From a virus (lineage: Duplodnaviria; Caudoviricetes): DNA of 36,558 bases. The position numbers and the translations under genes were made by a program. The notes under the pieces were generated by a model. That model made no database searches, was not told where the DNA came from, and was given only the letters and a program-made list of their open reading frames with translations. Positions 26,591-36,218 of the stretch are shown one piece after another. How positions within the stretch are numbered: position 1 is the first letter of the stretch; every line of letters starts with the position of its first letter. The DNA lies in IMG/VR virus record IMGVR_UViG_3300032257_000058, positions 1 to 36,558 of that record; one strand, written 5' to 3'.

Positions 26591-27658
26591 ATGCAGAAAT
26601 CAGCTAGAGTATTATTTTTGTTCAGTGTAATTTTTTTACTTATCAGCTGCGGAGGAGGTGAAAATTCATTCGTTGATCCCTCGGGTGACAAGTTAACGTT
26701 ATTACGCAGTTTAAATATTGAAGCTGGTGATCAGTGTTTAGCTGGAGGTGTTGAAATAGAGTCGGGCTTTGACAGTAACGAAAACGGCAGCTTGGACAAT
26801 TCTGAAGTTACCTCTTCGAAAATCGTATGCCACGGGAGCAATGGATATAACAGCCTAATAAGAATTGCTGATGAGTTAGCGGGAGTCAACTGCCAAGCGG
26901 GAGGAAAAGCGATTACAACCGGAATGGATCAAAATCGAGATAGTGTGCTTGATGATAATGAGATTAGCCTAACTCAATACATATGCAACGGCATCACGGG
27001 AAGTGACGGTGAGCAAGGTGATAGGGGCGTTGCTGATGGCTGTGACGTCGCTGATAACGGGAATGGGACAAAAACATTAAGCTGCGATAACGGGAACAGC
27101 GTGTTGATCGCAGATGGTGCAGGTTGCACGGTAACATCAAATAATGATGGCACTAAAACAGTTAATTGCGATGATGGTACGTCCGCAATAATAAATAATG
27201 ATTTAATTAATGTGACACCCAGTGTCATCGGGTCTCGACGAGACAACCCCGTCCCGTTAGGTCAAACACTCATAACGGAATTTTGGGAAATAAAAGTCAT
27301 AGAGGTGATTAGAGGAAAAGAGGCATTAGAAATAGTTCTTTCTGGCGGAGACTCAAATGATCCGTTAGAAGAAGGAATTGAATACATGCTAGCAAACATA
27401 AATGTACGATATATGGGTGATAAGCAAGAAGGTGAGTCAATTTGGCACTATGATTTTAGAAGTACAGGCGAACATAATATTCTATATCAACACCCGTTAA
27501 TATTTGGTTTCAGTGAATTGGATGCAGATCTTTTTACTGGGGGGCAAGTGACTGAATGGGTTGGATTGTTAATTGGCGAGAGCGAGCAAGCTCCACTTTT
27601 AGTTACCGACTCAGGCTTATCGGCTGGTGAAAATAAAAAATATATGATGCTTGAGTAA
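26591..27658 (+). CDS. Repeat-containing lipoprotein (moron)
   Basis: Lipobox LISC (Cys20); two C..GG...G.D.N.(N/D)..LD..E...C.G repeats; short G-x-x run; two C.V..N..GTKT..CD.G repeats; C-terminal Ig-like (DUF4352-like) domain. Confidence 0.8.
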   Translation: MQKSARVLFLFSVIFLLISCGGGENSFVDPSGDKLTLLRSLNIEAGDQCLAGGVEIESGFDSNENGSLDNSEVTSSKIVCHGSNGYNSLIRIADELAGVNCQAGGKAITTGMDQNRDSVLDDNEISLTQYICNGITGSDGEQGDRGVADGCDVADNGNGTKTLSCDNGNSVLIADGAGCTVTSNNDGTKTVNCDDGTSAIINNDLINVTPSVIGSRRDNPVPLGQTLITEFWEIKVIEVIRGKEALEIVLSGGDSNDPLEEGIEYMLANINVRYMGDKQEGESIWHYDFRSTGEHNILYQHPLIFGFSELDADLFTGGQVTEWVGLLIGESEQAPLLVTDSGLSAGENKKYMMLE

Positions 27659-32172: not shown

Positions 32173-32220
32173 AATATAGCAAAACGCTTTACTTTATATA
32201 ATATAGTGTTATACTATATT
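32173..32220 (+). promoter_or_regulatory. Promoter overlapped by inverted-repeat operators (acr-aca type)
   Basis: TTTACT(32188-32193)-16 bp-TATACT(32210-32215) with TGn. Perfect IR AATATAGT-GTTAT-ACTATATT (32200-32220) and degenerate copy AATATAGC-AAAAC-GCTTTACT (32173-32193). Confidence 0.8.
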
Positions 32221-32266
32221 TAAGAGTTGAGGAGAGGCCGAAGCTCAAAGTAAAGAGGGCAAAAAA

Positions 32267-32617
32267 ATGGAAATTTTAGTAAACGGCAAAGTAAAAGAAC
32301 TAGAAATTGTAGACCTTAAAACTGGCTGTAATTGGGAATACGATCTACTGGGTAATGCGGATGCTTTTGACGGATATAACGACGAGCGCGAAATGCCCGA
32401 AATGACTATCGAAACTTACTCCTGGTGGTCTGATTACATCAAAAAAGAGGAAGACCTGCAAGATCGGGCAAAAGCGATTCATGACGATTTAGGTGATAGC
32501 GACCAAGAAGCTTTTAACAAGGAAATGACAGACGCTGTTTGCAATGATTACGAAATGATGCAAATGAGCCAAATTGGTGTTGTAGAGTGTTGGGAAGAAA
32601 ATTTAAAAAAGAATTGA
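32267..32617 (+). CDS. Acidic hypothetical protein; candidate anti-CRISPR/anti-defence protein
   Basis: 116 aa, strongly Asp/Glu-rich, with its own promoter, directly upstream of an Aca5-like HTH gene. Function is inferred from context only. Confidence 0.6.
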   Translation: MEILVNGKVKELEIVDLKTGCNWEYDLLGNADAFDGYNDEREMPEMTIETYSWWSDYIKKEEDLQDRAKAIHDDLGDSDQEAFNKEMTDAVCNDYEMMQMSQIGVVECWEENLKKN

Positions 32618-32790
32618 GACCTGTCGCCAGAACCCTCGCTGAATACATCAGCGAAGAGTTTGGAGGATCGCAACGAGCCTTCGCAGAGGCACAAGGTGTG
32701 AAACCGGCGCAGGTCACACAATGGCTAAATAAGGATTTTATTGTGGTGGATAACGTTATGTACAGTCAAAGAAGATTTTTAAATAAATAG
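32614..32790 (+). CDS. Aca5-like small HTH repressor
   Basis: L.EYI...FGG....FA...GV....V..W....F.V......S.RR pattern matches my recollection of Aca5; TTG 32614 overlaps the upstream TGA. Confidence 0.7.
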   Translation: MRPVARTLAEYISEEFGGSQRAFAEAQGVKPAQVTQWLNKDFIVVDNVMYSQRRFLNK

Positions 32791-32833: not shown

Positions 32834-32873
32834 TTGACAAGACCCCTTGACAAAACTATAATCTCCATAGAAT
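32834..32873 (+). promoter_or_regulatory. Late promoter (pR'-like)
   Basis: Perfect TTGACA(32834-32839)-17 bp-TATAAT(32857-32862); CCTTGACAA direct repeat; -10-like TAGAAT at 32868-32873. Confidence 0.85.
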
Positions 32874-32877
32874 CAAC

Positions 32878-32950
32878 AAATGCCTGTCGCGAGAGCTTCG
32901 GGCATTTTTGCGTTTAGATAACTATGAAAGCCCTTAATTGGGCTTTTTTT
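32878..32950 (+). terminator. Tandem intrinsic terminators (tR'-like)
   Basis: AAATGCCTG...CGGGCATTTTT (32878-32909) and AAAGCCC-TTAATT-GGGCTTTTTTT (32927-32950). Confidence 0.8.
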
Positions 32951-32961
32951 GTGGGTGATAT

Positions 32962-33210
32962 ATGGCAGCTATCAGTACAAAAGAGAAATCAAAAATACGT
33001 CAAAAAATGTCATCGATTGGAACCGTTGATTATAATCGCCCAACAATAAACGCGGCTATGCAGGCTGTGGAAGATTGGTTTGATGGCGAGCGTGCGACGA
33101 TCAGCGCTCAAATCGATATTGCAACAAGCCCTAAAGTATTATCTAATCAACAAAAAAAGAAATTAGTTGGCTTCTGGATGCTTAAAAAATACGTCAGGGA
33201 GCTGTCATAA
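32962..33210 (+). CDS. Hypothetical protein, first late gene
   Basis: GGTG RBS; stop overlaps the next start. Confidence 0.65.
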   Translation: MAAISTKEKSKIRQKMSSIGTVDYNRPTINAAMQAVEDWFDGERATISAQIDIATSPKVLSNQQKKKLVGFWMLKKYVRELS

Positions 33211-33710
33211 TGACGACACGCACTACACCACTTCTCGGGTCAAATCCAGTCCCTGATAATTCAGGCGATGTGACGATAAAACTTTATTCTGAGCTTGATT
33301 CGGGCGCTGTTATCAATCCATTCGTCATCGTGTTTAATGACAGCGGTAACAAAGACGGTATCGCCGGATTGTTAAAAGTACCGGGCGATTATGTTGGGAC
33401 TGCAAAAGTAAACATATATTGGATCGCTGACGCAACGACGGGAGATGCCGTCTTCGACCTTTCGTATCTGACTAGGGCCGTCGGCGAAGACATGGGTGCG
33501 GCAGCGACAAGTACGTCCGATACCGTAACGACAACAACAGACGGGACAGCGTTTAATTTAAACAAATCAACAATGACGCTAACGTCCGGAGATTTCGCCG
33601 CTGGGGATATCGCCCCTGTCAAATTGTTTAGAAATAGTGGTGACGCTAGCGACGATCTTGCGGCTCCTGCGGGAGTATTTTACGTCGAATTCGAATATTC
33701 CGATGTCTAA
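33210..33710 (+). CDS. Putative virion fibre head/accessory beta-sandwich protein
   Basis: Thr/Gly/Asp-rich; VP.DY.....V.IYW and L.R......D pattern resembling fibre tip domains. Confidence 0.5.
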   Translation: MTTRTTPLLGSNPVPDNSGDVTIKLYSELDSGAVINPFVIVFNDSGNKDGIAGLLKVPGDYVGTAKVNIYWIADATTGDAVFDLSYLTRAVGEDMGAAATSTSDTVTTTTDGTAFNLNKSTMTLTSGDFAAGDIAPVKLFRNSGDASDDLAAPAGVFYVEFEYSDV

Positions 33711-35275
33711 TGGCTCGAGACTATACATCTACAGCTCATACAGTAAATACAGGTAGTCGAACTGGCACCACACTTAGGACGATTTCGGCTTGGTTTTACA
33801 TTGACGCTTACGATTCAACAGCGCGTCGTTTGTTCGATCAGGGTACGCAAGAGTATCTTTACTACAGGACAACCAATGGTGATTTTGCGTTTACTGTCGA
33901 CGCATGGAGCGGATCAAACGCTCGCTGGGGAATAACACAACCCAGCGCAGGTGGTTGGCATCACTTAGCTATAACTTACGACGCCGGCAGTACAGCTAAC
34001 GACCCTGTGTTTTGGCTCGATGGTACGTCAGTTTCGGTTGTTGAAATTACAGCGCCTTCCGGCACGTATTCAAACAAAACATCGAATTGTTACATTGGAA
34101 ACAGATCTGACGCAACCCGCGGACACAACGGTGCTATTGGTGAATTTGCGCAATGGGATGTGATTCTATCAGATAGCGAAATCGCAGCACTTGCGTCGAG
34201 AGTATCGGCAGCGAGAGTAAGACCACAAAGTTTGACGTTGTTCGATGCTGGACACAACGCGGCGGATATGGTTAACGGCGGAACATTTACTGTTTCTGTC
34301 GCAGGGTATGTCGATCACTGTCCAACTGGGTTTCCATTCGCGTTAGATGATTTTGTTCCGCATTCTGTTGCGGCGGGTGGTGGGACGAATTTGATAATTC
34401 AAGATTCGATACATGGTCACAGCGCTGATAATGTTGACTTAACTCAGTTACACCAACTTACAGTTCAAGATTCTACGCACGCGCAATCGTCGGACAATAT
34501 TAATCTAACGCAATTACACATCTTAAATGTTGACGAGTCAGCTCACTCATTAGCTTCAGATAATATAGACCTGACTCAGGATCAGCAGCTGGTAGTCGAA
34601 GATTCTTCACACTTACTGTCGAGTGATAATATCGACTTGACGCAAGATCACCAATTGACTGTACAAGACTCGGCGCACGGACACGCGGCAGATAATTTGG
34701 CGTTAACACAGGATCATCAATTGACGATTCAGGATTCAACGCACGGCCATACGGCTGATAACGTTGTTTTGTCGGTGGCTGGGATTTTGATTTTGCAGGA
34801 TGGGCAGCACTCACACAGTGCAGATAATATTGACCTAACACAAGATCATCAATTGGCTATCCAAGATTCGTTACATTCTCAAGTTTCGGATAATGTTGAT
34901 TTAACGCAAGACCATCAGCTGTCAATAAACGATAGCGCTCACGGGCACGTAGTTGATAACGTTATTTTGTCAGTCGCAACAATTTTAGGTATTAATGATG
35001 CGTCGCATGCTCAAACGGTGGAAGCCTTAACGCTAACGCAAGATCATCAGTTGGCAATTCAGGAAGCGTTGCACGCGCATTCCGGCGAGAGCATCGCACT
35101 AACGCAAAATCACGCGTTAATAATTAGTGATGCGTTGCACGGTTTAATCTCTGACAACGTTACGCTTACAATACCCTCTGGAGCGGTGACACCTTCAGAA
35201 AGAATTTACCAAATAAAAACAGATGATCGAGTTTACTTGGTAGCAGCAGAGTCAAGAATTTACACAATTCATTAG
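33710..35275 (+). CDS. LamG/concanavalin-like domain protein with 12 x 22-aa His-containing repeats (putative fibre)
   Basis: TISAWFY, WHHLAITYD, WLDG, IGN and G.IGEFA.W..ILS.SEI LamG motifs, followed by tandem repeats. Confidence 0.8.
   Translation: MARDYTSTAHTVNTGSRTGTTLRTISAWFYIDAYDSTARRLFDQGTQEYLYYRTTNGDFAFTVDAWSGSNARWGITQPSAGGWHHLAITYDAGSTANDPVFWLDGTSVSVVEITAPSGTYSNKTSNCYIGNRSDATRGHNGAIGEFAQWDVILSDSEIAALASRVSAARVRPQSLTLFDAGHNAADMVNGGTFTVSVAGYVDHCPTGFPFALDDFVPHSVAAGGGTNLIIQDSIHGHSADNVDLTQLHQLTVQDSTHAQSSDNINLTQLHILNVDESAHSLASDNIDLTQDQQLVVEDSSHLLSSDNIDLTQDHQLTVQDSAHGHAADNLALTQDHQLTIQDSTHGHTADNVVLSVAGILILQDGQHSHSADNIDLTQDHQLAIQDSLHSQVSDNVDLTQDHQLSINDSAHGHVVDNVILSVATILGINDASHAQTVEALTLTQDHQLAIQEALHAHSGESIALTQNHALIISDALHGLISDNVTLTIPSGAVTPSERIYQIKTDDRVYLVAAESRIYTIH
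34391..35182 (+). repeat. Twelve tandem 66-bp (22-aa) coding repeats
   Basis: Consensus L.(I/V)QDS.H.(H).(S/A)DN(I/V).LTQDHQ; His at position 8 in all 12 units. Confidence 0.9.
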
Positions 35276-35282
35276 GTGAAAT

Positions 35283-35507
35283 ATGAAAATAGAAGCGAAA
35301 CTACGAATCAAAGATAAACCCTTTGAAAAGTTTTATGACCTGGAAGTCGGCGACGTGATTACGGTTCCCGATGACGTTGGCGAGTATTGGGTTAAAAATG
35401 GATGGGTTAAGAATTTGGATTCAGGCGAGGACAACAAGCCCAGCGATAAGCCAGTTACGCTTGACGTTCATAAGTCTTCGCTCGGCGTAAAGGATACGGT
35501 GGAATAA
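35283..35507 (+). CDS. Hypothetical protein
   Basis: AGGTG RBS; GDVITVPD..G..WV..GW motif. Confidence 0.65.
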   Translation: MKIEAKLRIKDKPFEKFYDLEVGDVITVPDDVGEYWVKNGWVKNLDSGEDNKPSDKPVTLDVHKSSLGVKDTVE

Positions 35508-35508
35508 G

Positions 35509-35880
35509 ATGGGAAAGAGTGTTCATGATGATGTATTAGACGGCGCGATCGATGTACTTGATCAAGGTGACTTGATGATTGCATGTAGCGCGGAACCAAC
35601 CACGCGAGCCGAAGCAGTTTCAACATACGCACTAGCCGACGCGACGATGGTTGCTGATACTGATTACACGAAAGCAAACGGAGACACGTCCGGGCGAAAG
35701 GTAACGGTTGCGGCCAAGTCTACGATCACCGTTGACGCTACAGGTTCGGCGAACCATGTTGCAGTTGTTGACGCTACTCGTTTACTGTATGTGACCACAT
35801 GCACCAGCCAGGCACTAACGTCTGGTAATACTGTCAACTTTCCTGCTTGGGATGTTGAGTTCGCGGATCCAACGCCATAA
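35509..35880 (+). CDS. Putative small fibre/virion subunit
   Basis: Ala/Thr/Asp-rich; NGD.SGRK.TV, G.A.HVA and G.TV.FPAW..E..DP motifs typical of virion proteins. Confidence 0.6.
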   Translation: MGKSVHDDVLDGAIDVLDQGDLMIACSAEPTTRAEAVSTYALADATMVADTDYTKANGDTSGRKVTVAAKSTITVDATGSANHVAVVDATRLLYVTTCTSQALTSGNTVNFPAWDVEFADPTP

Positions 35881-36218
35881 TGCCAAGCTCTTTCCTTGTC
35901 GATGCCGATGCCGTGCTCGATTACAAATTCGATTGGGCTTCATTGACCAATGGATCAGGCGTTGAAGATTGGCTAGAGGCAGGCGAAACAATTACAGAAA
36001 TCGATGTAAGTGCTAGCGGCGTTTCACTCGGCGATGGTGTTGTGGTTGTGAGCTCGTCAGCTGGAAACGTAACGCCCGACGCGCCGGCTCTTGCAGATAC
36101 AAACACAAGCGTAATAGTTTGGATTTATAGCCCCACGGCAGGTTCGGTAGTTACATGCAGGATTAGAACAAGTAGCGGTCGAGTTGACGACAGGTCAGTT
36201 ACGTTCCTTTTGAGATAA
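35880..36218 (+). CDS. Putative fibre adaptor protein
   Basis: D.DAVLDY.FDW...WL..GETI and V.CRI.TS.GRVDDRS motifs. Confidence 0.6.
   Translation: MPSSFLVDADAVLDYKFDWASLTNGSGVEDWLEAGETITEIDVSASGVSLGDGVVVVSSSAGNVTPDAPALADTNTSVIVWIYSPTAGSVVTCRIRTSSGRVDDRSVTFLLR

Follow-up and report, generated by a model that had tools for sequence, protein, structure and literature searches.

A lambda-like phage operon with an Aca5 homologue, an acidic cargo protein of an undescribed family and a predicted -1 frameshift signal between them

INTRODUCTION

The closest described systems are the acr-aca5 operons of Enterobacterales prophages (PMC7648647; PMC9410906), for example acrIF11-aca5 in phiEt88 and PSTNGR2lys. 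In the parts of these sources drawn on here, a small acidic cargo gene lies upstream of aca5, the Aca5 promoters bear 8-5-8 inverted repeats and the unit is located after the Q/nin genes. Repression via the inverted repeat has been demonstrated for the tested Aca pairs (PMC9410906). Aca proteins control acr operons at both the DNA and the RNA level, and the Results of PMC13551039 describe no frameshifting. In the Acr-Aca fusions AcrIF24, AcrIIA1 and AcrIIA15, the inhibitor and the autorepressor are present in one chain. The -1 frameshift of E. coli dnaX, on the other hand, occurs at A_AAA_AAG in the zero frame and leads to a truncated product (PMC4344849, PMC1851650, PMC5600365).

Here, we analysed an operon in a virus record taken over its whole length (36,558 bases; hereafter, the window), which has direct terminal repeats. 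The operon shares with the acr-aca5 operons a homologous HTH gene, an 8-5-8 operator over the promoter, a small acidic cargo gene upstream and its site after Q/nin genes. It differs from them in that its cargo family is undescribed, its HTH falls in an environmental group and its junction, unlike the ATG of those operons, has a -1 frameshift signal. In addition, the unit points in the direction of the late genes, while in four cultured acr-aca5 phages it is opposed to them. The predicted fusion would resemble the Acr-Aca fusions, except that recoding would yield it conditionally and in a minority of cases; a fixed form, with other cargo, occurs in a related locus (L009). The heptamer is identical to that of dnaX, and the 3' stem-loop and a purine-rich stretch upstream are also in common with it. 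A putative SD-like element upstream of the heptamer is weak. Unlike in dnaX, the frameshift would add a repressor domain instead of truncating the protein.

RESULTS

Organization of the operon in the phage genome

The window is a lambda-like temperate phage that encodes integrase, CI/Cro, NinB and NinG, and its host is probably a gammaproteobacterium, judging from the Aca5 relatives described below. The original prediction placed a two-gene unit between a Q-like gene and the late promoter. This layout was confirmed, with every described part present, and the features are as follows.

32173..32193, + strand: putative upstream degenerate Aca5 operator (8-5-8), its right arm overlapping the -35 candidate; repeat scan
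32188..32215, + strand: predicted sigma-70 promoter TTTACT-16-TATACT with a TG-extended -10; promoter scan, the same architecture being seen in related loci
32200..32220, + strand: putative Aca5 operator, a perfect 8-5-8 inverted repeat, AATATAGT-GTTAT-ACTATATT, over the -10, with TAG half-sites; repeat scan
32267..32617, + strand: acidic cargo of 116 aa, an undescribed family on mobile elements and a candidate anti-defence protein; ORF and profile searches
32605..32611, + strand: slippery heptamer A_AAA_AAG in the cargo reading frame, one codon ahead of the stop; junction scan
32605..32790, + strand: Aca5-family HTH, 58 aa from the TTG at 32614, or the C-terminal part of a predicted -1 frameshift fusion of ~174 aa
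32618..32670, + strand: predicted RNA stem-loop 3' of the slippery site, a candidate stimulator; -19.2 kcal/mol, z -2.4
32834..32862, + strand: consensus promoter TTGACA-17-TATAAT, likely the late promoter; promoter scan
~32874-32950, + strand: two terminator-like hairpins past the late promoter; hairpin scan

The upstream neighbour of the operon is a sigma70-r4 gene that is only weakly Q-like. Between the HTH gene and the late promoter, 44 bp downstream, no terminator or hairpin was found. The original prediction called the unit inserted; we looked for a close relative phage that would show such an insertion and found none, and 22 NinG-related loci were not syntenic.

The HTH is a homologue of Aca5

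The HTH frame (32614-32790) matches phrog_10103 (E 4e-17), and tblastn gave matches in nine phage records. Four of its relatives (QGF22041.1, AIA41311.1, WP_009113099.1 and ABU78294.1) proved, in a by-eye comparison, to be identical to entries in the Aca5 list of PMC7648647, and the window HTH has 23/47, 28/49, 28/52 and 23/47 identities with them (49-57%). In nine loci (L001, L002, L003, L017, L018, L029, L047, L049 and L187), the gene immediately upstream of the HTH encodes AcrIF11 (NF052490, above the NCBIfam cut-off), so homologues of the HTH do lie directly downstream of known acr genes. In the last of these, the helix is the same as that of the window and the promoter is nearly so. Together with the homology to published Aca5 and with the inverted repeat in the core promoter, here in two copies, this bears out the Aca5-like assignment made in the original prediction. 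By sequence, the HTH is an Aca5 homologue, and the operon is very probably Aca5-autoregulated.

Upstream of 27 hand-picked aca5 loci, the cargo belonged to 11 unrelated families, and that of the window is a twelfth; the N-termini of three of these aca5 cargo families occur in a published table of Acr homologues. A tree built from 55 short rows placed the window HTH among environmental sequences, apart from the enterobacterial rows, though without starred support. A class-wide scan, in which 400 genomes were scored, gave one weak Aca5-like match, which has its own ATG. Two further observations concern the aca5 loci in general. An unassigned acidic cargo family, a further Acr candidate, is located upstream of aca5 in three lineages (L006:2732-3004, L033:2723-2992 and L035:2741-2989). 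Some aca5 genes stand alone, each with an operator of its own but no cargo (L022, L024, L028 and L040), and may be anti-anti-CRISPR or relic copies.

Two putative operators overlap the promoter

The original prediction described a perfect 21-bp inverted repeat on an extended -10 promoter and a degenerate copy over the -35. Both were located, the right arm of the latter containing the -35 candidate. A second promoter candidate, TTTATA-16-TATATT, overlaps the first and has an alternative -10 at 32215-32220. Perfect 8-bp inverted repeats with a spacer of 3-7 arose in 34/3000 mononucleotide shuffles of the 105-bp intergenic region, and the whole window has seven listings of them at five places. 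These shuffle odds alone are modest, and we regard the repeat as real because the comparative operator evidence supports it. Exact matches to the degenerate operator consensus within the window are these two sites only, and an element matching the upstream one is also found upstream of L006, L012, L023, L184 and L187.

We compared the half-sites with the helix of the HTH in 37 other loci, hand-chosen for a clear operon start, two of which were without a site under the filter; the counts include kin and are inflated by it. Loci with a PAQ..QW helix had TAG|TAG in 8/8 cases, and the window, with the helix PAQVTQW, also has TAG|TAG. The PQQ..QW helix went with AAG|AAG (8/9 loci), the PQQ..KW helix with AAC or ATC (9/9), and the PPQ helix with mixed half-sites in five loci and TAG|TAG in three, while the single LPQ-helix locus was mixed. 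The upstream-operator pattern was found in 24 viral loci, 13 with an Aca5 match and 11 without. Most of those without are one unrelated RHH-antirepressor cassette. The perfect-operator pattern alone is unspecific (Aca5 in 6/118 loci).

The cassette of an RHH gene plus an antirepressor-like gene has the same operator-like promoter motif (L172, L174, L180, L181, L186 and L194). We also observed a common purine-rich motif and a small hairpin in the 5' UTR of this aca5 group (window 32222-32250; L006, L012, L014, L177 and L178), the motif being reminiscent of Aca1/Aca2 RNA sites; the folding support for the hairpin is weak (z -1.7).

A slippery junction is conserved between cargo and Aca5

A TTGA overlap is a standard arrangement for translational coupling, and the original prediction read the junction in this way. 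The overlap is present at 32614, and the reading as plain coupling missed a conserved -1 frameshift signal. Two further X_XXY_YYZ heptamers, at 32599-32608, overlap the heptamer A_AAA_AAG, and the -1 frame at A_AAA_AAG is the Aca5 frame, open for 61 codons. The junction thus has an X_XXY_YYZ heptamer in the zero frame together with an open -1 frame. The predicted stem-loop has z -2.0 to -3.0 against mononucleotide shuffles in the window, the L006 copies and L009.

The same heptamer is present in the same register in three copies (L006-L008) whose HTH is 74% identical to that of the window and whose cargo is unrelated. Their hairpin has the same loop, and its stem shows paired changes. L009 has an in-frame cargo-HTH fusion with the same linker, the same loop position and one more A, which may be a homopolymer sequencing error. 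The codon that matches the TTG of the window is GTA in L006 and CTA in L009; therefore, the start codon of the HTH is not conserved, while the heptamer is. The proteins that come closest are P0165 (63%) and P0004 (83%), each on a contig of 945 bases. The same overlap fits them, which by deduction from the proteins forces the same heptamer; a search for their DNA found none, and that the two share one contig was not confirmed. An overlap like that of the window was found in 0/184 other family members. Altogether, the case for the frameshift spans about four lineages, and for one of these it is deduced from protein sequences.

The main alternative is an ordinary acr-aca5 operon, in which the cargo is anti-defence, Aca5 is made only by re-initiation at TTGA and the A-run is a scar of gene fusion or fission. 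The overlap itself would suit it, as would the usable overlap starts (TTG in the window and a deduced GTG in P0004) and those clade members that were called with a start near the overlap (P0005, P0009 and P0013). Moreover, only 1/27 other aca5 junctions has the slippery layout, the remaining 26 being without a slippery signal, and a conditioned scan for frameshift junctions gave no new locus, with 4/8 matches by chance. Against this alternative, it is the heptamer and the position of the hairpin that are conserved in L006 and L009, and not the start codon. The background of the slippery layout is also low, 1/61 in the ORFs of the window and 3/785 in other ORFs (~0.4%).

A parallel layout, in which both the heptamer and the HTH-like frame differ, is also at odds with the ordinary operon. 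Among 66 loci of the cargo family, eight (three of them named Paenibacillus) have G_GGA_AA[C/G] directly before the stop, followed by a -1 frame of 59-71 codons. Of these -1 frames, three of seven tested gave weak HTH-type Pfam matches, all below the cut-off, and the 3' stem-loop is absent in 9/10 G_GGA_AAN-type loci. On balance, we consider the ordinary operon unlikely, and the use of a -1 frameshift at the cargo-Aca5 junction reasonably likely as a prediction. Our literature search found no frameshift-made Aca or recoded acr-aca junction in the portions of the printed record that it covered.

The cargo belongs to a widespread family of acidic proteins

The 116-aa product is very acidic, as predicted (30 D/E vs 11 K/R, pI ~4.1). 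It was also described as an orphan, which proved wrong: HMMER found 156 distant representatives at E<=1e-3, spread over several phyla on plasmids, phages and prophages. Every one of the 113 aligned members is acidic (pI at most 5.9, median ~4.06), and D16, G20, W23, D26, G29, N30, W53, W54 and D94 are conserved among them. These members gave no consistent match in Pfam, PHROG and NCBIfam, libraries that hold part of the known Acrs, and in comparisons with the PDB by profile or fold the cargo had no match. Five family accession numbers were not found in print, and the motifs of the family are absent from the acr/aca supplements searched (including PMC12248084); other candidate lists may hold it. 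Within the sources covered, we found the cargo in no described family.

The libraries gave no match to a described Acr family. AlphaFold2 gave a confident model (pLDDT 96.5), which predicts a small beta-rich N-terminal part and three helices. A Foldseek search with the model found nothing at E<=0.001 in either the PDB or the viral libraries, and two family members had no usable match in the ESM Atlas. With VIA-align, the modelled residues 55-116 had generic three-helix matches only (best Z 8.0, rmsd 2.3, 60 aligned), and the modelled N-terminal part reached a best Z of 3.8. Absence of a fold match does not prove that the fold is new.

The neighbourhoods of the family were obtained from loci of a more distant subfamily (69 distinct ORFs), carried on phages, prophages, an inovirus and plasmids of Pseudomonadota, Bacillota and others. 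Cargo relatives adjoin Aca10-like HTHs (match to 7xi5, E 9e-16 and 1e-20; 7XI5 is the structure code given in the Aca10 paper), and one is two genes from a downstream gene with an Aca2_YdiL match above the cut-off. RHH and HTH genes are also among the neighbours, and in P0087 an HTH_17 domain is fused to the cargo relative. One relative is encoded on a conjugative plasmid, immediately beyond its relaxase region. No Aca5 was found near the relatives in the subfamily loci examined, and no locus was found with a relative directly beside a tool-confirmed acr.

In two loci, we take a neighbour (L104:3386-3694 and L109:1639-1956), followed by an RHH-like gene, to resemble the C-terminal part of AcrIC6; several searches gave no confirmation of this label, and it was not retained. 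Directly downstream of a Paenibacillus relative, there is a weak match, above the cut-off, to Cas_VVA1548 (L120:3488-4276), possibly a co-opted ring nuclease. Near-identical cargo relatives and promoters on a conjugative plasmid (L083:3001-3390) and an inovirus (L085:2422-2811) suggest, from their sequences, a recent transfer between element types.

The cargo is probably an anti-defence protein

The original prediction proposed that the 116-aa gene may be an undescribed inhibitor, possibly a DNA mimic. That the family is undescribed was upheld by the database searches, and the role of an inhibitor is indicated by association. The recurrence of the family beside Aca-type regulators suggests that the cargo is an anti-defence protein, which we consider quite probable. 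A CRISPR target is possible, if somewhat doubtful. DNA mimicry has charge as its whole basis, with no known mimic fold among the matches. We also considered type I-C targeting from the CRISPR content of hosts in one genus and rejected it as unsupported, since type I-C was not enriched (5/17 carrier genomes vs 5/26 non-carriers, p=0.48); cas1 is absent in 10/17 carrier genomes.

Alternatively, the cargo could be regulated by Aca5 and yet be no immune inhibitor, acting instead as an early host-takeover or establishment factor, e.g. an acidic binder of a host DNA-handling protein, that is switched off in the lysogen. The broad spread of the family over phyla whose genomes are often without CRISPR is compatible with such a role, no known anti-defence fold was found and Aca-regulated genes are often unassigned, as far as PMC13551039 was drawn on. 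However, the Aca5 cargo of known function in the examined loci is Acr, and the family recurs beside other Aca-like regulators, and so we regard a takeover factor as rather improbable. A type II toxin-antitoxin pair with an HTH antitoxin, which the original prediction gave as an example of a refuting outcome, is highly improbable, since, despite a cargo-then-HTH order and an autoregulatory repeat that resemble HigBA (PMC9410906, drawn on in part) and a weak, below-cut-off YdaS match, there is no fixed cognate partner (the HTH pairs with 11 other cargo families, and the cargo pairs with unrelated HTH/RHH proteins or stands alone) and no toxin family or fold match was found.

DISCUSSION

We slightly favour the reading, drawn from sequence comparison, that the window carries an Aca5-type operon whose acidic cargo inhibits a host defence and whose repressor binds the two repeats and is partly made by -1 frameshifting. 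Upon phage entry, the promoter would still be free of repressor, and the 116-aa cargo would be made in a burst. Some ribosomes would slip at A_AAA_AAG, aided by the 3' stem-loop and by the stop that follows one codon on, and the resulting cargo-Aca5 fusion of ~174 aa would be a fixed minority product; free Aca5 may be made in addition, by re-initiation at the TTG of the overlap. Dimers of the repressor would then occupy the two 8-5-8 repeats and switch the promoter off. Because there is no terminator before the late promoter, repression may also protect the timing of the late genes and limit read-through. The acidic face of the cargo would most likely bind a nucleic-acid-engaging surface of a defence complex, type I Cascade being the single best guess for the target.

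A wider proposal, which we offer tentatively and with some doubt, is that the cargo founds a cross-phylum anti-defence family, possibly with a new fold, and that its operons use -1 frameshifting, which would have arisen on two or more occasions, each with its own slippery site and HTH family, and would fix the ratio of inhibitor to inhibitor-repressor fusion. The family offers a testable new group of candidate inhibitors from Gammaproteobacteria to Bacillota, and the aca5 marker is extended beyond enterobacteria. If the frameshift is real, recoding would be a further layer of acr operon control besides those known at the DNA and RNA levels, and it could be a stepping stone from separate acr-aca genes to fused Acr-Aca proteins. 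In that case, gene callers would also overlook aca frames that lack a start, and guilt-by-association searches would miss them.

Elsewhere in the window, a predicted lipoprotein of 355 aa with repeats (26591-27658), with no NCBIfam match, adjoins the CI gene on the opposite strand and is a possible moron. Structural-looking genes are located right past the late promoter, ahead of HNH/terminase (32962-36218), which is an unusual gene order; one of the products is a 521-aa LamG protein with C-terminal repeats.
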